Below are positions 31,030 through 45,059 of a stretch of DNA of 64,000 nt, one piece after another. Under the pieces are notes generated by a model. It saw only the letters and a program-made list of their open reading frames with translations, was not told where the DNA came from and made no database searches. Each line of letters starts with the position of its first letter. Positions within the stretch are counted from its first letter, which is position 1. Source of the stretch: Squalus acanthias (lineage: Eukaryota); the NCBI GenBank assembly GCA_030390025.1, contig CM059432.1:21268001-21332000 (forward strand), given 5' to 3'. The translations under genes were made by a program, and so were the position numbers.

Positions 31030-33370
31030 AGGGTGAGAAGGTTGGTTCTCAAACAAGCATACTAAGCTTGAATAAAGGAGACTATGATGGCATGAGAGCA
31101 GAATTGATTAAAGTGGACTGGGAAAATAGATTAAAGGGTAAGACGGTACATGAGCAGTGGTGTTCATTCAAGGAGTTATGTTACAACTTTCAAAATAAAT
31201 ATATTCCACTGAGGAAAAAAGGGTGTAAAGGAAATGACAGCCATCCATAGCTAAGTAAAGAAATTAAGGATAGTATCTAACTAAAAGCAAGGACATATAA
31301 GGTAGCCAAAGTTAGTGGGAGGATAGAAGATTGGGAAGTCTTCAAAAGACAACAAAAAGTAACTAAAGGATTGATTAAGAAAGGGAAAATAGACTATGAA
31401 AATAAATTAGCAAAAAATATAAAAACAGATAGCAAGTGTTTCTATAGTTATATAAAAAGAAAAAGGGTGGTTAAGGCAAACGTAGGTCCCTTAGAGGATG
31501 AGACCGGGAAATTAATGGTGGGAAACATGGAGATGGCAAAAATGCTGAACAAATATTTTGTTTCAGTCTTTACAGTAGAGGACACTAAGAATATCCCAAC
31601 ACTGGACAAACAGGGGGCTCTAGTGGGGGAGGAGCTAAATACGATTAAAATCACTAAGGAATTGGTACTCAGTAAAATAATGGGACTCAAGGCGGATAAA
31701 TCCCCTGGACCTGATGGCTTACATCCTAGGGTTTTGAGGGAAGTGGCAGTAGGAATTGTGGATGCTTTGGTAATAATTTTCCCAAACTCCCTGAACTCAG
31801 CAAAGGTCCTGGCAGATTGGAAAACTGCTAATGTAACACCCTTATTTAAAAAGGGTAGTAGGCAGAAGGCTGGAAATTATAGACCAGTTAGCCTAACATC
31901 TGTGGTGGGTAAAATTTTGGAGTCTATTATTAAGGAGACAGTAACGGAACATTTAGCTAAATATAATTTAATAGGACAAAGTCAGCATGGCTTTATGAAG
32001 GAGAAGTCATGTCTGACAAATTTGCTCGAGTTCTTTGAGGACATAACGTACAGGGTGGATAAAGGGGAACCAGTGGATGTAGTGTATTTAGAGTTCCAGA
32101 AGGCATTCGACAAGGTGCCACATAAAAGATTATTACTCAAGATAAAAGATCACTGGATTGGGGGTAATATTCTGGCATGGGTGGAGGATTGGTTATCTAA
32201 CAGGAAGCAGAGAGTTGGGATAAATGGTTCATTCTCGGACTGGCAACCAGTAGCCAGTGGTGTTCCGCAGGGGTCGGTGCTGGGTCCCCAACTCTTTACA
32301 ATCTATATTAACGATTTGGAGGAGGGGACCGAGTGTAACATATCAAAGTTTGCAGATGATACAAAGATGGGAGGGAAAGTAGAAAGTGAGGAGGACATAA
32401 AAAACCTACAAGGGGATATAGACAGGCTGGGTGAGTGGGCAGAGATTTGGCAGATGCAATACAATATTGGAAAATGTGAGGAAAAATCAGAGAGCAAGTT
32501 ATTATCTTAATGACGAGAAACTGGAAAGTACTGCAGTACAAAGGGATCTGGAGGTCTTGGTGCAAGAAAATCAAAAAGTTAGTATGCAGGTGCAGCAGGC
32601 GATCAAGAAAGCCAATGGAATGTTGACTTTTATTGCTGGGGGGATAGAATATAAAAACAGGAAGGTATTGCTGCAGTTGTATAGGGTATTGGTGAGACCG
32701 CACCTGGAGTACTGCATACAGTTTTGGTGTCCATACTTAAGAAAAGACATACTTGCTCTCGAGGCAGTACAAAGAAGGTTCACTCGGTTAATTCCGGGGA
32801 TGAGGGGGTGGACATACGAGGAGAGGTTGAGTAGATTGGGACTCTACTCATTGGAGTTCAGAAGAATTAGAGGCGATCTTATTGAAACATATAAGATTGT
32901 GAAGGGGCTTGATCGGGTGGACGCGGTGAGGATGTTCCCAATGATGGGTGAAACTAGAACTAGGGGACATAATCTTAGAATAAGGGGCTCCTCTTTCAAA
33001 ACTGAGATGAGGAGAAACTTTTTCACTCAGAGGGTAGTGGGTCTGTGGAATTTGCTACCCCAGGAAGCTGTGGAAGCTACTTCATTAAATAAATTTAAAA
33101 CAGAAATAGACCGTTTCCTAGAAGTAAAGGGAATCAGGAGTTACGGGGAGCGGGCTGGAAATTGGACATAAGTTTGAGTTTGGATCGGTCAAGGCCCTGT
33201 GGGTGGCGGAGCGGGCCCAGGGGCCGAGTGGCCTGGTCCTGCTCCTACTTCTTGTGTTCTTTAGAGTTGAGGTTGGATCAGATCAGCCATGATCTCATTG
33301 AATGGCGGAGCAGGCTCGAGGGGCCGATTGGTCTACTCCTGCTCCTATTTCTTATGTTCTTATGTTCTTA
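31030..33370 (+). mobile_element. CR1 LINE ORF2 (RT) and 3' UTR with duplicated terminal module
   Basis: ORFs 31371-32510 and 32431-33171 (FADDTK etc.); (TTCTTATG)n tail. Confidence 0.96.
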
Positions 33371-35164
33371 TAACATGGGAGCCAGGAGATTGGAGTTAAG
33401 GAATGGTGCTGATGGGTTGCCTTGTCCATGTTGATTATTAATTACGAACATATGGAAAAACAGTGACTGTCCGCATCTCTGAAGAGGGGAAACCAAGTGG
33501 AACATTTTACACAGAGAACATTAGACTTTTGCAATAAAGACAGAGATTAAGAAAAAATTACTTATGCAGAGAATGGTTGAGGCAGAGACCATTGCATCTT
33601 TTAAGGGAAGTGAAAATAAACATTTGAAGTAGAGGAACGTATATGAAGACAGTGGGATTACTTCTGGATTGTGCTAGCAAAGAGCTGGCGCTGAAAACAC
33701 TACTGGAACATTCACAGATGTCCCTAGCACCAATATACGGAAGGTTATAGCCCAGTGTCTTATGCAGTCCAAGTAGACCATCCCCCATTATTATCTATCT
33801 ATAGATGTCAACATCGATAGGATTCTGGAGTTTAGGCTCCGTTTGCTGTAGCACGTACAGACTCTGTTTAAATAGACTCTGTTTGCTGTGTGCTGTGTAA
33901 ATAAACTCTGCTGTAAAATAGACTGTTTGCTGTAAGTTCTGCCACAAGTCCCGCCCCATCTCCAAGACATTGGCTGACAGTGCAAATCATTGGCTGAAAC
34001 AGTAGTGTCAATACGCACTCCATTTTTAAAAATATACATATACAGGATAGTGATGGTAGGGAGAAAGGCTTCTAAAATTTGTTCCATGTTGCCACTGGCT
34101 AGAGTCTGCAACTACATTGTTACACGCAATTGTTACATAGAGGATTTCCATTCAAACTGTTTAAATAGAAGGTTCCAATGTTAAATGTTGACATAAAAGT
34201 GTGACCAAAAATCATGACCACAGGATGTGAATACGTGCTCCAAATTTTCACGTAGAGATGTGTGCAGTGTCATGGAGCATCCTGCAGTGAAATGAATGGG
34301 TGCTGAGTCCCATGATGAAATCAATGTATGGTTCTCCATGTGGGCTGCTGTTTGTAAAACATAAAGCAATAGACGGGGGAAAAAATGTCATATTTTAGCG
34401 CTCAGCTCAGTTTTCTCTCACAGGCATCCTGTCTGTCGGATCAGCAGAGATTTTTTATCAGTGCCAATCTGAAATCTTAACTATGATGAAATATGCAAAT
34501 ATGTCAACAGGGATCAATCTGAAGGTGAAAATTGGCATAAATATGGATATAATCATGGACAATTAAGGTGATTATATTTACGTAGGAAATAATGGGAGAA
34601 AATTGAAGTTTCATGTTCTAAGGTATGTCAGAGATAATGTAATAACATTAAAAGGGCCCTGACTGCAGGAAGCCTTATTGCATTTGTTTACAAGTACATG
34701 ATAATGTTTAATCACTTTGAAATAGATCATCACATCGCTTACACATGACACCATCATAACAGAAATGACGCACAATGTCTTTCTTCCCAAAGATAAGGTT
34801 TGGGAAATACTCAGTATATTTCCGTATTTCGGTATCTCATGGACCTTGCAACTTCATAGCAACCAGGGCCCCCTGCTGGAAAGACACTGCACCTTCATTT
34901 AAAAAAAATTAAATGATAAACAAATGTCCTGAGGCTTTGCAATCGCAGATCTTGAATCTGGCTGCCTCACATCAGAATTCAGAGATATTGACATATTTAT
35001 ATCTTTGACTGTCGTCTGACAGACCTGGTTATTTCGACTGCAGTTATACAACTGTACTAGTTTGAGACTGTAGAGTGCTCAGCAAGATCAGAGTTCGACT
35101 GCTGGCTGTGACTTTCCACCAGAAGGGAGCTCTGTGCATGCATGCTTACATGCATGCACAAAAT

Positions 35165-35640: not shown

Positions 35641-37956
35641 AGAGAGAAAGAGAGATTTGCATTCAAGGTAATCAAATTACCACTAATGGTGTGGAGGACG
35701 AATTCTTGGAATGCATGCGAGATGGTTTCCTGGATCAGTATGTGGAGGAACCAACCAGGGAACAGGCTATTCTGGATCTGGTACTGTGTAATGAGAAAAG
35801 GCTAATCAATAATCTTGTGGTAAAGGGGCCTTTAGGGACAAGTGACCATAATATGATTGAATTTTACATTAAGTTTGAGAGTGATGTAGTCCAATCTGAA
35901 ACTAAGGTCTTCAATTTAAACAGAGGAAACTACAAGGGTATGAGGGACAAGTTGGCCATGGTAGATTGGGAGACTGCACTAAAAGGTATGAAGGTGGACA
36001 TACAATGGCTAACATTCAAGGAAATAATGCATAATTTGCAACAAACATATATTCCTCTAGGGCATAAAACCCCAAAAGGAAAAGTGATCCAACCATGGCT
36101 AACAAAAGAAATTAAAATTAGTATTAAGTCAAAGGAGGAAGCTTATAAAGTTGCCAGAAAAAGCAGTCAGACTGAGGATTGGGATCTTTTTAGAAATCAA
36201 CTAAGGGGGACCAAGAAATTGATAAAGAAAGGGAAAATGGAATATGAGCACAAACTAGCGAAAAATATAAAAACGGATTAAAAAACTTCTATAGGTATGT
36301 GAAAAGGAAAAGACTGGCAAAGGTAAATGTAGGTCCTTTACAGTCAGAGACGGGAGAATTTATAATGGGGAATGAGGAAATGGTGGAGAAATTAAATAAA
36401 TACTTTGTTTCTGTCTTCACGGAGGAAGACACAAAAAACCTCCTAGAAATACGAGAAAACCAAGGGTGTGGCGAGAATGAGGAACTTAAAGAAATTATTA
36501 GTAAAAAAACAGTACTAGCAAAATTAATGGGACTAAAAGTTGATAAATCCCAAGGACTGGATGACCTACATCCTAGGGTTTTGAAAGAGGTGGCCATTGG
36601 GATAGTGGACACATTGGTTGTCATCTTCCAAAATTCTATAGATTCTGGAAGGGTTCCTGCAGATTGGAGGATAGCAAATGTAACCCTGCTATTTAAGAAA
36701 GGAGGGAGAGAGAAAACAGGGAACTACAGACCTGTTAGCCTCACATCAGTAGTTGGGAAAATGCTGGAATCTATTATAAAGGATGCAATAACTGGGCACT
36801 TAGAAACTAATAGTAAGATTGGGCAGAGTCAACATGGATTTATGAAAGGGAAATCCTGTTTGACAAACCTATTGGAGTTCTTTGAGGATGTAACTAGTGG
36901 AATCGACAAAGGGAAACCGGTAGATGTGGTGTATCTGGATTTTCAGAAGGCCTTCGATAAGGTCCCACACAAGAGGTTGGTGAACAAAATTAGGGCACAT
37001 GGATTGAGAATTGGTTAACAGACAGAAAACAAAGAGTAGGGATAAACGGGTCTTTTTCAAGATGGCAGGCTGTGACTAGTGGGGTACCGCAAGGATCGGT
37101 GCTTGGGCCCCAGCTATTCACAATCTATATCAATGATTTGGATGATGGAACTAAATGTAACATTTCCAAATTTGCTGATGATACAAAGCTAGGTGGCAGT
37201 GTCAGTTGTGAAGAGAATGTGAAGAGGCTTCAGGGGGATCTCAACAGGCTCAGTGAGTGGGAGAGAACCTGGCAGATGAATATAATGTGGATAAATGTGA
37301 AGTTATCCACTTTGGGAGAAAAAACAGAAAGGCAGAGTATTTCCTAAATGGTAAAAGATTGGGGAATGCAGGTGCTCAAAGGGACCTGGGTGTCCTTGTA
37401 CCTGAATTACTGAAAGTAAATGTGCAGGTGCAGCAAGCCATTAGGAAGGCAAATGGTATGCTGGCCTTCCATGCCATGATCTCATTAAATGGAGGAGCAA
37501 GCTCGAGGGGCCGAATGGCCTACTCCTGCTCCTATCTTCTATGCTTCTATGCTTCATTACAAGAGGATTTGAGTACAGGAGTAAAGAAGTCTTACTCCAA
37601 TTGTATAGGGCCTTGGTGAGACCACTCCTGGAGTACGGTGTACAATTTTGGTCTCCTTACCTAAGGAAGGATATACTTGCCATAGAGGGAGTGCAACAAA
37701 GGTTCACGAGATTCATTCCTGGGATGGCGGGACTGTCGCATGAGAAGAGATTGAGTAAACTAGGCCTGTATTCTCTTGAATTCAGAAGAATGAGAGGGGA
37801 TCTCATTGAAGCATACAAAATTATTACAGGGCTTGATAGGGTGGATGCTGGGAGAATGTTTCCCTTGGCTGGGGAGTCTGGAACCAGGGGCCACAGCCTC
37901 AGCATAAAGGGTAGGCCATTCAGGACTGAGATGAGAAGAAATTTCTTCACACTGAG

Positions 37957-38139
37957 TGTGGTAACACTTTTCAGCTTCCTGTATGACATCACTTCCTGTA
38001 ATCAGTCCAGGATAAATACTGGACTGATCAGTTAGCTCTGGAAGAGGCATAGGGTAAGACCTCTTTTGTATGCAGCACCGTTTTAAGTTGATTAAAGCTT
38101 ACATTAAGTTTACCACGCGTAAGGCTCATTCTTACGACA
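37957..38139 (+). repeat. 5' LTR of the Gypsy element
   Basis: 183 bp. TATA-like GATAAATA (38011-38018) lies in the loop of a 10-bp inverted repeat; ATTAAA poly(A) signal at 38091-38096. Confidence 0.97.
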
Positions 38140-38218
38140 ATTTAATCAACTTTTGAAAAACTTCGCACTCAAACTTTTTGGACGAACTCGGAGCTAAGGA
38201 TCCAGGGAATCACCCATC

Positions 38219-41200
38219 ATGGAAAACATCCTTAAACCATCGCGTCTTGACTTGGACCCAAACACCCCAGCAGCCGGTAAGGTGTGGAAACACTGGTATC
38301 GCACGTTTGAGAATTTTCTTGAGTATTGCAAAGCTGATGATAACTCAAAGTTGCGGATACTCATCAACTGTGTCACCCCGAATGTATTTCAGTATGTGGA
38401 AGACTGGGACAGTTATGAGGAGGCAATTCAGACGCTTAAGAGACTATATACTAAGACACCGAATGAGGTCTATGCTAGACATCTACTAGCTACAGCCCAA
38501 CAAGGGCCGGAGGAATCCATTGATAAATTCCTCCAAGAGCTTCGCAGACTTAGTATGGACTGTAACTTTCGGGCAGCCTCAGCTGAGCTATACCGCGAAG
38601 AAATGATCCGTGATGCGTTCATCTGCGGGCTTGCCTCCCCATTTATACGCCAGCGTCTACTGGAAAGTAAGACACTTGAGCTGCAGAGAGCTTATGACCT
38701 GGCTTGCTCTCTAGATCTGGCAAAAAGAAATGCAGACCTTTTTACAGTGCCCAGACCTCGGTCTGCTGCCTTAACTACAGTCAGGCAATTTAAGAGGCCA
38801 CAGGTGAACTCTATTAGGGAGGACTTTATCCCTGACGATCGATCTGATGACTTCACTGATGAAGAGGATGATGACCCCACTGTGGCAGCCTCTTGGCAAT
38901 CTAAGAAATGCTTTTTTTGTGGTGATGAGTTTCACCCTCGGAGATTCTGCCCTGCTCGCAATGCGTTTTGCAGTCATTGCAACAAAAAGGGTCATTTTGT
39001 AAAGGTTTGCCTATCAAGAGCCTCTACGAGGGCTTATCAAGCTAAGTCCTACCGAACTGCCCCAGTAAGGGCCTATCAGGATGTTCCAACTAAAAACTAT
39101 CGTGCTTCCTCTCGGGTTTTTTCTCGAAGAAACACACCTAGAATTTCAGCCACTCTTTGTGCAACGACACCAATTACAGCTGCTTGTCCTCAGAATCTAT
39201 TCCATGCAGCTACAAAAGCATCAATTAATGGACATACTTTAGATGCCTTAATTGACTCAGGTAGCACTGATAGTTTCATTAGGGAACAGACTGTTGCACA
39301 GTTAAAGCTACATGTTTTTCCATCGGACCAGGCAGTTGCGATGGCTCAGTCATCACTTAATACCAGAATTTCTGGCTTCTGTGTAGTTGAAATAATGCTT
39401 AAAGGTCACAGGTATCCCTCCACCCGGCTTTCGGTGCTCAAGGACTTATGTAGTGATCTTATCTTAGGGCTGGATTTTCAAAAGCAGCATAAGAAGCTTA
39501 CCATTGAGTTCGGCGGATCCAAACCTGAACTCACTATTTCTAATATACGACCTCGATTACCGTTCTGTGCCTTGTCAGCAGCTTCACTGGATGAACCCTC
39601 ACTGTTTGCCAGTATCCCTCCTCGATGCAAACCGATTATAACAAAGTCACGCCGTTTCAGTCAGGAAGACCAGTCTTTTATTGCGGCTGAGATTTCTCGG
39701 CTTTTAGCAGAGGATATCATCGAGCCTTGTTCGTCGCCATGGCGCGCCCAGGTCGTTATTGTTAAGAACCCTCTACAACCTCACAAGAAACGGCTGTGCA
39801 TTGACTATTCACAGACCATCAATCAGTATACGGACTTGGACGCATACCCATTGCCGCGCATCGATGATATGGTTAATAAATTGGCTGAGTACACGGTGTT
39901 CTCGACTTATGATCTGAAAAGCGCCTATCATCAGGTACCCTTGAAGGTCTCAGACAAGCAGTATACAGCCTTTGAAGCCAATGGGCGGCTGTATCAATTT
40001 CGTCGCCTCCCCTTTGGGGTCACTAATGGAGTGGCTGTCTTCCAGCGAGCAATGGATGACCTGGTCAAACAGGAAGACTTGAAGGATACGTTTCCTTATC
40101 TGGACAATATTACTGTCGCAGGTCGCAATCAGCAGGAACATGACGCCAATCTCCAACGATTTTGGGATGCACTCCAGCACCGTAATTTGACATTGAATGC
40201 GGCTAAATCCATTGAGTCACAACCAACTATCAACATCCTTGGCTATTGTGTGGGCAATGGCATCATTAAACCTGACCCTGAAAGGCTTCGCCCACTCCAA
40301 GAACTCCCGCCACCTAAGAATCCGGCCTCCTTGCGCCGGGCCCTCGGCCTGTTTGCATACTATGCGAAATGGATTCCTAACTTCTCGGACCGAATCCAAC
40401 CTCTACTGAAGGCCAGCACATTCCCACTAGACACAACGGCTGTTGCAGCCTTTAACCTCCTGAAAAAGCAGTTGGAGAAAGCGGCTCTTCACTCCATCGA
40501 TGAGAGTCTTCCTTTCGTGGTTGAGTGTGATGCCTCGGAGGTGGCAATCTCAGCCACTCTGAATCAGGAAGGTCGTCCGGTGGCATTTTTGTCCAGGACT
40601 TTTCAAGGGGCTGAGCTACATTATCCTCCAGTCGAGAAAGAAGCTACAGCCATCATAGAGGCAGTACGGAAGTGGAGTCATCTCCTGGCTCGCCAGCACT
40701 TTACCTTAATCACGGACCAGCGATCGGTCGCCTTCATGCTCGATAATCGAAAACGGACCAAAATTAAAAATAATAAAATCCAGCTTTGGCGGCTGGAATT
40801 GGCCTCTTTTGGTTACACCATCCACTATCGACCTGGCAAGGAGAATGTGGCTCCGGATACCCTCACACGAGCATTCTGCTCCGCCATGGCACCCTCTACG
40901 CTCGTAGACATCCATGATGGGTTGTGTCATCCAGGCGTTACTCGCATGCTGCACTTCGTGCGGTCCCGAAATCTCCCATTCTCTACCGGGGATGTAAAGA
41001 AGATGTGCTCGGACTGCAGAGTCTGTGCGGAATTGAAACCTCGGTTTTTCCGCCCCTCGGGTGGTATACTCATACATGCGACCCAGCCAATGCAAAGGCT
41101 TAGCATCGATTTTAAGGGGCCGTTGCCCTCTTCGACTCGCAACACTTATCTATTAACAATGGTTGATGAGTATTCTCGTTTTCCGTTTGCCTTTCCCTGC

Positions 41201-42175
41201 CCCAATATGCTGACAACCACGGTTATCAGCTGCCTTGAACAGGTATTTGCTTTCTGTGGCATGGCATCCTATGTTCATTCAGATCGGGGCCCTTCTTTTA
41301 TGTCGGGAGAACTCAAGGCCTATCTCTCGGAACGGGGTATTGCTGCCAGCAAAACGACGCCTTATCATCCGGTTGGGAATGGGCAAGTCGAGCGTTTTAA
41401 CGCTATCATCTGGAATGCGGTACGTCTGGCTTTGAGATCTCGGGGCCTACCCAACCAGCATTGGGAAGCAGTACTTCCAGACGCATTACACTCCACACGG
41501 TCCCTCCTTTCGACCGCCACAAATACGATGCCTCATGAACGGTTCTTCCGATTTCAGCGTCGCTCATCCTATGGGACATCTCTCCCGTCGTGGCTGACTG
41601 CACCGGGACCAGTGCTACTCCGAAGATATGTCCGGGCGTCTAAGAATGACCCCCTGGTAGATGAGGTTGAGCTCACTGACGTCAACCCTACCTACGCCTA
41701 TATTCGGTATCCTGACGGTCGGGAATCTACCGTGTCATTGCGGGATCTGGCTCCCTGCCCGCCGAAACATAGAGGGACACCAGGGGATGATATTGTACCA
41801 GGCACATCTCTGGGCTTGCCAGGTGCCTCTCATCATGATCGGGATCTGACGCCGGCTGGTACCTCACTCCAGCGTGCCGACCTGGGGCAGACTGACTATG
41901 AGCCCGTCGGGGCTCGCACGCGCAGCCACGATCAACCCTGTACCGTACGCTCAGAAACGGATCTGCCACAGCCCTGCCCGACACCCATTCGGGTACCAGT
42001 ACACAGTCAGGATCGTTCTGACCCCTCACAGAGCGGGCTGGAGCACTCGGACTCTGGTCCATGGCCCGCAGCGGGTAAACGGGCTAGGGGCCCTCTACCG
42101 CTACGAGAACCCAAACGGGTGCGGCTCTCCCTCATCCAACGGCTACGAAATGGAGGGAGCATTCCGGCCTCCTAA
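38219..42175 (+). CDS. Gag-Pol polyprotein (Gag with zinc knuckles, aspartic protease, RT, RNase H, integrase), 1318 aa
   Basis: CFFCGDEFHPRRFC...CSHCNKKGHFVKVC knuckles; ALIDSGS protease; RT motifs RLCIDY, FSTYDLKSAYHQ, LPFG, YLDN; RNase H CDAS...EKEATA...LITDQ...VAPDTLTR; integrase H-H-C-C and D,D(35)E (SIDFKG, HSDRG, QVERFN). Domain order PR-RT-RH-IN is Gypsy. No chromodomain or env seen. Confidence 0.97.
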   Translation: MENILKPSRLDLDPNTPAAGKVWKHWYRTFENFLEYCKADDNSKLRILINCVTPNVFQYVEDWDSYEEAIQTLKRLYTKTPNEVYARHLLATAQQGPEESIDKFLQELRRLSMDCNFRAASAELYREEMIRDAFICGLASPFIRQRLLESKTLELQRAYDLACSLDLAKRNADLFTVPRPRSAALTTVRQFKRPQVNSIREDFIPDDRSDDFTDEEDDDPTVAASWQSKKCFFCGDEFHPRRFCPARNAFCSHCNKKGHFVKVCLSRASTRAYQAKSYRTAPVRAYQDVPTKNYRASSRVFSRRNTPRISATLCATTPITAACPQNLFHAATKASINGHTLDALIDSGSTDSFIREQTVAQLKLHVFPSDQAVAMAQSSLNTRISGFCVVEIMLKGHRYPSTRLSVLKDLCSDLILGLDFQKQHKKLTIEFGGSKPELTISNIRPRLPFCALSAASLDEPSLFASIPPRCKPIITKSRRFSQEDQSFIAAEISRLLAEDIIEPCSSPWRAQVVIVKNPLQPHKKRLCIDYSQTINQYTDLDAYPLPRIDDMVNKLAEYTVFSTYDLKSAYHQVPLKVSDKQYTAFEANGRLYQFRRLPFGVTNGVAVFQRAMDDLVKQEDLKDTFPYLDNITVAGRNQQEHDANLQRFWDALQHRNLTLNAAKSIESQPTINILGYCVGNGIIKPDPERLRPLQELPPPKNPASLRRALGLFAYYAKWIPNFSDRIQPLLKASTFPLDTTAVAAFNLLKKQLEKAALHSIDESLPFVVECDASEVAISATLNQEGRPVAFLSRTFQGAELHYPPVEKEATAIIEAVRKWSHLLARQHFTLITDQRSVAFMLDNRKRTKIKNNKIQLWRLELASFGYTIHYRPGKENVAPDTLTRAFCSAMAPSTLVDIHDGLCHPGVTRMLHFVRSRNLPFSTGDVKKMCSDCRVCAELKPRFFRPSGGILIHATQPMQRLSIDFKGPLPSSTRNTYLLTMVDEYSRFPFAFPCPNMLTTTVISCLEQVFAFCGMASYVHSDRGPSFMSGELKAYLSERGIAASKTTPYHPVGNGQVERFNAIIWNAVRLALRSRGLPNQHWEAVLPDALHSTRSLLSTATNTMPHERFFRFQRRSSYGTSLPSWLTAPGPVLLRRYVRASKNDPLVDEVELTDVNPTYAYIRYPDGRESTVSLRDLAPCPPKHRGTPGDDIVPGTSLGLPGASHHDRDLTPAGTSLQRADLGQTDYEPVGARTRSHDQPCTVRSETDLPQPCPTPIRVPVHSQDRSDPSQSGLEHSDSGPWPAAGKRARGPLPLREPKRVRLSLIQRLRNGGSIPAS

Positions 42176-42193
42176 TCTTTTGGGGGGGGAGAA

Positions 42194-42376
42194 TGTGGTA
42201 ACACTTTTCAGCTTCCTGTATGACATCACTTCCTGTAATCAGTCCAGGATAAATACTGGACTGATCAGTTAGCTCTGGAAGAGGCATAGGGTAAGACCTC
42301 TTTTGTATGCAGCACCGTTTTAAGTTGATTAAAGCTTACATTAAGTTTACCACGCGTAAGGCTCATTCTTACGACA
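42194..42376 (+). repeat. 3' LTR of the Gypsy element
   Basis: Identical to the 5' LTR; preceded by the polypurine tract. Confidence 0.97.
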
Positions 42377-45059
42377 CTGAGAGTGGTGAATCTTTGGAAT
42401 TCTCTACCCCAGAGGGCTTTGGAGGCTCAATCATTGGGTATATTCAAAACAGACGTCGATAGATTTCTGACTAGTAAGGGCATCAAGGGATATGGCGATA
42501 GGGCTAGTGAATGGAGTTGAGGCAGAAGATCAGCCATGATCTCATTGAATGGCGGAGCAGGCTCGAAGGGCCAAATGGCCTACTCCTGCTCCTATTTCTT
42601 ATGTTCTTATGTTCTTATAGCGCCTTTCATGACCTCAGAATGTCCCAAAGCACTTTACAGCAAATAAAATACTTTTGAAGTGTAGTCACCGTTGTAATGT
42701 AGAAAATCTGTACAACTGAAGCCTCTGTTATATGATGTCAGGCTAATTGATAGCCTATAACACTCCCTACCCCAATTCCTCAGTGGCCTATGCTGGCTCC
42801 CTGTCCCCGCAGTGCATCACATTCAAAATCCTTGTTCTGATCTACCAATCCCTCTGCGGTCTCAGCCCACTCTACTTCTTCAACCTCCTCCAGCCTTGCA
42901 TCTGCTCCTGTGCCATCCAGTCCTCTGCCTCTGTCATGCTTTGCATCCCTTCTCCCTCCACCCTACAATTGTTGGCAGAGCCTTCAGCCATTTTGTCGCT
43001 ACTCTCTGGACGTCCCTCCAGACAATGGGGAGCTGACCAATCATACTGCACTTGCATAACAAACGTTTAACACTCGTGAAACAGTTAACATGCCACATAA
43101 GTGGAAGTAACAGTAAAAAAAGGTCACCATTTCATTTGGTTATTGCAAAAATCTTATGGTGCCGCTCCTAGATTTATTCTCCATATTGTAGCAGTAGAAA
43201 GAGTGTAGGAAACAAAAATTAATGAAATTTCCTTTTTGACTTAATGGTGTTAATAATGCACGATAAGTTATTCATTATTAATGTAGTGAAACCTCAGTAT
43301 AATTGGCCTTATTGGTAGGCCTGTTAGGCGATCCCGCATATTAATATAACAAAAGCTTCTTGAGAGCATTCAAAGATGAAAAGATTTTATATTCTGATTC
43401 TGCCAGCCCCATTCATCAGTACGGGCTGATTCTTATTTACTTTCCCTTTCTCTATTCTGATTTATGTTGATGCTGGTAGGACATAATTTGTTACAGTTCC
43501 CTTTCAACCAACACCACTGCCAAGCACATAGGCATTTGTACTTTGTATCCCCTCTCTTAATATTACTCTCTATAATTCATAATATGACACTGTACTCGAT
43601 TTATTACATTACCTCCCTCCATCTATCGAACTAGTTTAACTGCAGAATAATAAGCACTGCAAAGCACCTCAAGAGCACGTCATTGTGTGAAGTACTGTGA
43701 GAAAATTCAATATGGTGAGGTACTGTATAAATGAAAATATTATACTAATTATTGGCATTGTCTAATTACTATTTATTGATTTACCTCATCTCTCCTACTC
43801 TTTTCCACTTTGCTATCCTAAAGTTTGGGCCTTGGCCTCTCTCGCCGGTTTCTCAAATTTTAATAAATTAGTCCTGATTTGCCTTATGATGTCATTTATT
43901 TCACATTAAACTTAACACTTTTACACAAGATTCAGAAAGACCAGTCTATTAGCGGCAACAATATTGAGCTTCCAGCTACTTAAAGTGATTTAACTATGTG
44001 CACTGGTAAATTATTTGAAACCGTGCACTGACGTCACTTGGAAGTTGGTTTGTTATTGTCACCCAGTTCCAGCAAAGGTATATTGATCCTTTATCATATA
44101 ATTAGCATTACAAGGCCATGCTGTGAAATAATGAGCATTCATTGCAGTGCAAGCTACCTAGGAGTGTACTACTGGGAAATGATTCTGTTCTGCAGCCAAT
44201 GGCCCTTGTACAGAGTCTACTTACTCTATCCTAAACCTCCTGTTCGTCAACTGGACCTCTTGATGTTGCATTATAGCACGACTGGTGCTCGATTACTCCA
44301 TGTCTTGGACATTCCTCTTAAATGATTAACTTTTTGTGCACTGCTTCCCAGCCCTGTCACTCTTGCTGGATTGCATTAAACATCTATTAGGGACAACATG
44401 TTCTTGGTTTTTTGACTGTTTTCTTACAAACCTTACTACTTCAGAAAGTTTTCTTTTCATATTTGTTTCTGCTTTTGCAGTTTATTGAATCTATACAACA
44501 TCATATTTGTATTTTATCCAGATGGACCCACAGTAATAAAATATAACTGTTCTTATGTCTATAATTTTGTTGGCAACCAAGATTGAAAACACCTTGAATA
44601 TTACATCGACATGGATTCAATTATATTTGCTTGCAGTACAACCCTATTTATTTATTTTTTCTGTTGAACTCTGGGTTCCCCAAAAGTTGAAAGACACCAT
44701 GCTGGATGTTGAGGTGGAGGAGAGCTTGGGCTAAAAATTGGCTAGCCCCCCAAAAATGGGTGTGGGGATTGCGATGCGCAATTAACCCGTGCTTGTTCAA
44801 TGTAATGCAGGCAGCATGCAAACTTCGTGCTGCCTGCTAATTATAATGATAGTGGTGTGTAGTCCAGTGCTAAATGTGCAGCTGAGTGGCTGCACACTCA
44901 GCAGGGGCCCAAGTTCGTGCAAGACTAGCACCAATTAAAGCTAGCCTGCAGTTCTTCAAGCCAGCCTGCACCTCTTAAAGGGGAGGTGCATTCTGGCTGC
45001 AGCAGGTACTGGAAGTCATTGTAGAGGAGTGTGTGACCTACAGGAAGAGTGAAGATAGA

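Follow-up and report, generated by a model that had tools for sequence, protein, structure and literature searches.

To our knowledge, bench proof of self-primed reverse transcription exists only for the fission-yeast Tf1 group. In Tf1, as described, the RNA's initial 11 bases anneal to the element's primer binding site (PBS), and RNase H cleaves between bases 11 and 12 (PMC7175516), and Tj1 of S. japonicus has been read as self-primed in the same manner (PMC4600332). Self-priming has also been predicted from LTR-PBS complementarity for the vertebrate Tf1/sushi group (sushi-ichi and relatives; PMC4600332, citing Butler et al. 2001), and the Tcn1-clade chromoviruses as well as the TAR-lineage Copia elements of plants are presented as predicted self-primers (PMC6317226). 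Another set of described elements, those of the Mag lineage, is reported with tRNA primers: in Steamer and neighbouring branches a 12-nt site for the 3' end of tRNA-Leu lies directly past the LTR (PMC8905726), mosquito Mag-lineage elements are given sites for tRNA-Leu, tRNA-Ser or tRNA-Arg (PMC3286476), and a 'putative' tRNA-Asn site has been proposed for a mussel Steamer-like element (PMC11046912). We describe here a Gypsy element of Squalus acanthias and its relatives in which, judging from comparative evidence, reverse transcription is very probably primed by the element's own RNA.

An intact Ty3/Gypsy copy with identical 183-nt LTRs and an open gag-pol frame was found at 37957-42376 of the window, the 64-kb stretch of DNA that was analysed; all coordinates refer to this stretch and all features lie on its plus strand. 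The LTR bounds, 37957-38139 and 42194-42376, were obtained by comparing the LTRs with each other and from a 5-bp target-site duplication, CTGAG (37952-37956 and 42377-42381), that was read directly; both flanks belong to one interrupted older repeat. The 5' LTR (TGTGG...ACGACA) is the same as the 3' LTR. Both were located by repeat search (family D3) and refined by reading their ends, and the single mismatch reported by that search falls outside the true LTR. Pfam matches and the frame list gave a single open gag-pol frame of 1318 aa (38219-42175) with two CCHC knuckles, an aspartyl protease, RT, RNase H and integrase. Downstream, a polypurine tract, GGGGGGGGAGAA (42182-42193), adjoins the 3' LTR; relatives carry similar G-rich tracts ending GAGAA. 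The TG...CA LTR ends, the target duplication, the polypurine tract and the pol order PR-RT-RNase H-IN assign the element to Ty3/Gypsy (Metaviridae). No chromodomain was matched by Pfam in the 1318-aa gag-pol at E <= 0.001, and the element thus lacks the integrase C-terminal chromodomain that defines Tf1/sushi chromoviruses. The preliminary description, which had recognised a Gypsy element without chromodomain, was correct in this respect. The element is inserted into an older LINE-like repeat (31296-33372 and 36144-37559; families D1, D2, D4 and D5), a second copy of which, 71-76% alike, is located about 4.8 kb upstream, and an RT-tail-like frame (37541-38035) extends into the 5' LTR.

With Steamer, SURL and other C-clade (Mag-lineage) elements, as these have been described (PMC8905726, PMC3601003), the window element shares a single gag-pol close to 1300 aa long, LTRs near 180 nt that start with TGT and end with ACA, and an overall size of 4.4-5 kb. 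According to the same accounts, C-clade elements are widespread in marine invertebrates and fish (PMC8905726, PMC3601003), and the homologues found here come from the same host range: RT-IN sequences 57-77% identical to that of the window element were retrieved from shrimp, sea louse, tunicate, sea anemone, soft coral, mussel, whipworm and catshark. Such a distribution over phyla is reminiscent of the horizontal transfer that has been considered for Steamer-like elements (PMC8905726). By its architecture, by the length and ends of its LTRs, likened to the published description of Mag C (PMC3601003), and by the hosts of its homologues, the lineage looks Mag/C-clade-like. An atlas search with the element matched only generic Gypsy clusters. 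A PBS for tRNA-Leu or tRNA-Ser is usual, though not defining, in the Mag lineage and is lacking in the window element; the tRNA-Leu site that is reported directly past the LTR of Steamer and its neighbours (PMC8905726) is lacking both in this element and in the 22 related families presented below.

Direct reading confirmed that no TGG-initiated site follows the end of the window LTR at 38139, as the preliminary description had stated; the sequence there consists of a single A (38140), read directly, and then TTTAATCAACTT (38141-38152). Since the LTR end is fixed at 38139 by the LTR comparison together with the CTGAG duplication, A38140 is the only base preceding the PBS arm, and the earlier statement that the duplex begins 1 nt from the LTR edge holds. 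TTTAATCAACTT is the exact reverse complement of AAGTTGATTAAA at 38085-38096, the LTR arm that we propose as self-primer. The final six bases of this arm (38091-38096) are ATTAAA, a hexamer of the poly(A)-signal type, in line with the preliminary description, which had the arm end on this signal. The 12-nt complementarity, first noticed there, was likewise verified: the 12-mer was found three times in the window, in both LTR copies (that of the 3' LTR at 42322-42333) and inverted at the PBS, compared with a chance expectation of 0.01 occurrences per window, and none of 100 shuffles gave three. In folding calculations the duplex was part of both the minimum free energy (MFE) and the centroid structures of the 5' leader, with or without a 44-nt leader sequence. 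One predicted hairpin begins at the first base past the primer arm (38097-38109) and a second LTR hairpin, CGTAAGG...CTTACG (38118-38136), was present in both MFE and centroid structures. The 5' leader of the window element folds no better than its shuffles (z = -0.7 and -1.1), so that support for the pairing comes from covariation and not from stability. The duplex had also been described as extendable by GTTTT (38080-38084) and AAAAC (38157-38161) across a 4-nt bulge. This extension is indeed present in the window, but it is missing from the sister family described below and has no counterpart among the other families; we therefore rejected it as a functional part and take it as probably due to chance. 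At 38151, part of the copies in two sequencing runs showed a one-base length variant of the T run just past the PBS core, which shortens the 4-nt bulge and leaves the 12-nt duplex untouched.

In the 3.7-Gb host genome, 965 LTR-PBS junctions of the window family were counted within three mismatches, and over 304 nt each of the 40 copies scored agreed with the window at 100% of positions. It is an abundant and very young family. Sequencing runs under at least six organism codes, in addition to that with the best match, also contained words nearly identical to those of the element, and either the family is common to close relatives or it has moved between them. A search with the catshark homologue revealed a sister family, B, in the same genome, of which three short stretches were inspected (L141 on contig C18, L142 on contig C4 and L143 on contig C13). 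It has an LTR of 215 nt, a gag start with about 76% nucleotide identity to the window and a 13-nt primer/PBS pair; a 1315-aa open frame was found in 31 of the 51 genome matches scored with protein P0078. The sister copy L142 carries an insertion of about 430 nt in gag, the start of which is like a tRNA-derived SINE and the tail of which is that of the LINE-like repeat in the window.

Metagenome contigs were scanned with an alignment of 15 polyproteins, which yielded 80 loci of 43-69% protein identity; a scan of a viral contig collection yielded none. The gag start and enough upstream sequence were present in 28 of the 80 loci; grouped together with the window at 85% nucleotide identity, as measured across the initial 450 nt of gag, these gave 22 families. 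The family of L039, cut by a contig end, was left unjudged, and L053, on a circularly permuted contig, adds one family. The 23 judgeable families are thus that of the window, sister family B and 21 from metagenome contigs. Self-complementarity between PBS and LTR was present in all 23. In every one the LTR ends with CA and is separated by a one-base spacer (A in 21 families, T in L038 and G in L072) from a PBS arm that begins TTT(A/T), and in none does the PBS start with TGG. The complementary LTR segment is located 21-68 nt upstream of the PBS arm and ends in ...TAAA (TTAAAA in one family; three hexamers deviate, ATTGAA, ATGAAA and ATTAAC). The base that follows the primer arm is R, usually then CC (RCC). 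When the loop was folded alone, a stem started at this first base in 16 of 22 families, and the duplex was part of the MFE structure of the arm-to-arm segment in 21 of 22. Several families have a PBS arm that fills nearly the whole interval from the LTR to the gag ATG, with 0-5 nt left, which leaves no room for another primer site in those families. As far as the sequences allow us to judge, the primer arm ending in a poly(A)-type hexamer, the abutting hairpin, the one-base spacer and the PBS form a conserved and distinctive module. A TGG-type site in L039 sits in the loop, not at the LTR end, and was dismissed as a coincidence; the PBS motif of Steamer adjoins no LTR among the loci examined.

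Both arms are rich in A and T, and an inverted repeat might arise by chance in AT-rich sequence. As a control, inverted repeats with their right arm within the 133 nt before gag were compared with those of 243 equal-sized windows inside coding regions. Perfect inverted repeats of at least 11 nt were found in 23 of 29 loci and in none of the 243 control windows, the maximum of which was 10 nt, reached three times. Perfect repeats of 10-18 nt were present in 26 of the 29 loci. The three loci below 10 nt were L039, cut by the contig end, and L086 and L088, which are older copies with LTRs 94-95% alike and in whose arms 12 and 11 of the 13 leading positions are still paired. These controls, the expectation of only 0.01 occurrences of the 12-mer per window, and the recurrence of the repeat in 23 families with compensatory changes leave practically no weight on chance, which we regard as refuted. 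These results indicate that the PBS/LTR complementarity is functional and not accidental.

The compensatory changes were analysed in an anchored comparison of the first 13 positions in 21 families. The two arms of the same element formed a mean of 12.4 Watson-Crick pairs out of 13 (all 13 in 12 families; six families had 12 pairs, two had 11 and one had 10), compared with 9.1 for arms taken from different families. In 20000 reshuffles of the PBS arms among families, the observed sum of 260 was never reached, the best reshuffle giving 223; this test somewhat overstates independence, because the families are related and have in common the AAA with which the primer ends as well as a G that never varies at position 10. 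A:T pairs occupy positions 1-3 nearly everywhere, and G:C is found at position 10 from the primer 3' end in 21 of 21 families, whereas positions 4-9 and 11-13 each showed two to five types of Watson-Crick pair. Compensatory changes were also seen between close relatives: where the LTR arms of L048 and L051, members of one family (at least 85% nucleotide identity), differ by G/T, their PBS arms differ correspondingly by C/A, and a T/C change between L032 and both L033 and L036 is matched by A/G. Covariation between the PBS and the poly(A) region of the LTR, which the preliminary description had suggested looking for, was thus found as compensatory changes in all 23 judgeable families. Positions 9-13 of the primer arm resemble an initiator-type motif in many families; this resemblance, and it is a resemblance only, would fit a transcription start in or at the arm.

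The same data bear on a host primer. The PBS might bind a host tRNA, or a tRNA half or fragment, as in most elements of the Mag lineage, and the tRNA-Leu and tRNA-Ser sites of mosquito Mag elements (PMC3286476) and the tRNA-Leu site reported for Steamer and C-clade neighbours (PMC8905726) lend it precedent. However, besides the missing TGG start in 23 of 23 families, the 21 families compared carry 20 different 13-mers, each fitting its own LTR, and a conserved host RNA cannot follow changes of the PBS that accompany those of the LTR from family to family. Loci L035, L047, L048 and L051 come from contigs of one assembly series and have four different PBS sequences, each again matching its own LTR: these loci share one host tRNA pool, and one pool cannot explain four sequences. 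The window contains no tRNA genes. A tRNA search of the host genome (RF00005) returned tandem arrays, and the 6 tRNA genes obtained from 30 loci (Lys-UUU and Cys-GCA), a very small sample that makes the comparison weak, matched the PBS region over 5 nt at most. We consider a tRNA primer very improbable. Two features of the self-primed class are present in the element: a PBS complementary to its own LTR and kept so by compensatory change, and no PBS complementary to a tRNA 3' end, the latter as judged against the small tRNA sample.

All families have an AATAAA-type hexamer at the end of the LTR arm, and in 13 of 23 it is canonical (AATAAA or ATTAAA). At the end of the primer arm, ATTAAA was found in 8 families, AATAAA in 5 and GTTAAA in 5, while TTTAAA, TTAAAA, ATTGAA, ATGAAA and ATTAAC were each found in one. 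L033 and L034 have a canonical hexamer further down the loop (AATAAA and ATTAAA, respectively), and the arm is therefore not the best candidate in every family; by sequence it is the best poly(A)-signal candidate in most of them. This raises the question of whether the duplex is a regulatory RNA stem, which would hide the 5' poly(A) signal or serve in packaging or dimerisation while something else primes reverse transcription. The hexamer at the arm end in all families agrees with such a role, as does the fact that pairing only where a PBS follows would set the 5' copy of the LTR apart from the 3' copy; moreover, covariation is proof of pairing, not of priming. A regulatory stem, however, has no need to begin one base past the LTR end, and in 23 of 23 families the right arm occupies exactly the place of the PBS behind a constant 1-nt spacer; no alternative PBS was seen, and from the arm to the gag ATG several families have the mere 0-5 nt mentioned above. 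A stem that is regulatory with priming left to another molecule seems to us improbable; regulatory and priming roles are themselves not exclusive. Priming by the element's own RNA is supported by the position of the duplex, which starts one base past the terminal CA, where the 3' end of a minus-strand primer must sit.

The exact geometry, its conservation and the compensatory changes are demonstrated by these comparisons; from the analogy with Tf1 we infer that cleavage, primer extension and PBS rewriting proceed as follows. In the genomic RNA, a 12-13-nt LTR segment (38085-38096, ...AUUAAA) would pair back onto the PBS at 38141-38152, looping out the 44 nt between the arms, with the hairpin that abuts the duplex carried in the loop. 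The RNase H of the element would then cleave just past UAAA (38096), and the new 3'-OH would be extended over A38140 and the LTR end to give a strong-stop DNA of about 44 nt; the predicted primer RNA would end in ...AAGUUGAUUAAA and be joined to DNA that starts with the complement of A38140. This strong-stop DNA would be passed on to the segment that is repeated at the RNA 3' end and could anneal there to the sequence separating the hexamer from the poly(A) site. The plus strand would copy the primer, and the PBS would thus be rewritten from the primer at each cycle. Such rewriting would explain how the two arms change together, without selection of double mutants.

Where the RNA starts would decide which part of it acts as primer. 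The genomic RNA may start at the paired segment, as in Tf1, or 45-60 nt upstream, in which case the primer would be internal, and we hold the two to be about equally probable. TATA boxes lie 74 nt upstream of the arm in the window (GATAAATA, 38011-38018, with 7/8 matches to TATAWAWR and a putative function) and 90 nt upstream in the sister family (a perfect TATAAATA), and from them transcription would be expected to begin some 44 and 60 nt upstream of it. Most of the sequence from box to arm cannot be aligned between these two families, yet the TATA box is kept, which favours the internal-primer reading for these two. The preliminary description had placed the start about 45 nt upstream of the paired segment; the box at 38011 on which it relied is real and has its perfect counterpart in the sister family, but a TATA-like box with 7/8 matches is missing in 16 of 23 families, so that no common start site can be derived from it. 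Three points argue for a start at the arm. The complementarity stops sharply after 10-18 nt in each family, a limit that would be expected if the PBS were rewritten from a short run-off primer, and in some families the LTR starts only 93-105 nt upstream of the arm, which is hardly enough space for both a promoter and a long leader. Thirdly, a long 5' tail on the primer would produce a plus-strand end that differs from the sequence following the PBS. Among the sequencing runs listed with matches to the element, none was of RNA. Contigs assembled from four sequencing runs (X1, X2, X5 and X10) showed loose ends at the LTR edges, like genomic DNA, and no start or poly(A) site; a poly(A) run at the end was found in none of the 80 metagenome loci. 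We also put forward, tentatively and as slightly less than an even chance, that the primer is an internal piece of R that doubles as poly(A) signal: in the 5' LTR the duplex would hide the signal and then be cut after UAAA, while the 3' LTR, with no PBS downstream, would have its signal free and used. If true, this scheme would be distinct from that of Tf1 and would couple the choice of the poly(A) site to priming. It would also require some additional step to cope with a primer carrying a 5' tail of 45-60 nt, because the plus-strand copy of so long a tail would not match the sequence downstream of the PBS.

Taken together, the comparative evidence supports self-priming of the Tf1 kind in a metazoan lineage without chromodomain. 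As in Tf1 and Tf2 of Schizosaccharomyces pombe and in Tj1, as described, a site for tRNA is missing, the PBS beside the 5' LTR, roughly a dozen bases long, is complementary to RNA derived from the LTR of the element itself, and a structured loop lies between the arms (PMC7175516, PMC4600332). In Tf1 the primer is generated by an RNase H cut where the duplex ends (PMC7175516). Tf1, Tf2 and Tj1 are chromoviruses, whereas the present elements are devoid of a chromodomain and belong to metazoan hosts. The Tf1 primer consists of the first 11 nt of the RNA, while the start may here lie 45-60 nt upstream; and, unlike that of Tf1, the primer arm here ends with UAAA, as part of a hexamer of the poly(A) type, and an RCC hairpin comes next (16/22 families). 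The predicted self-primers of the sushi group, the Tcn1 clade and the TAR lineage also differ, being chromoviruses or Copia elements. A literature search, with subscription journals (Jule, SURL, Butler et al.) and Repbase notes outside its scope, returned no report of self-priming for Mag/C-clade elements. The lineage is new for this mechanism.

Among Gypsy elements without chromodomain, self-priming appears as the rule in a large and highly successful group from marine animals and one cartilaginous fish. For the neighbouring elements that have been studied well, namely Steamer and those of the mosquito Mag lineage, use of tRNA-Leu or tRNA-Ser has been reported. The group would offer a dated and comparable case of a switch in priming mode. 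The compact cis-element made of primer arm, hairpin, spacer base and PBS could be used by annotation tools, which now give 'no PBS' for such elements, and the finding provides a concrete hypothesis that ties the use of the poly(A) signal to priming. Finally, independence from a host primer may bear on the spread of close relatives, with 57-77% protein identity, over several animal phyla.
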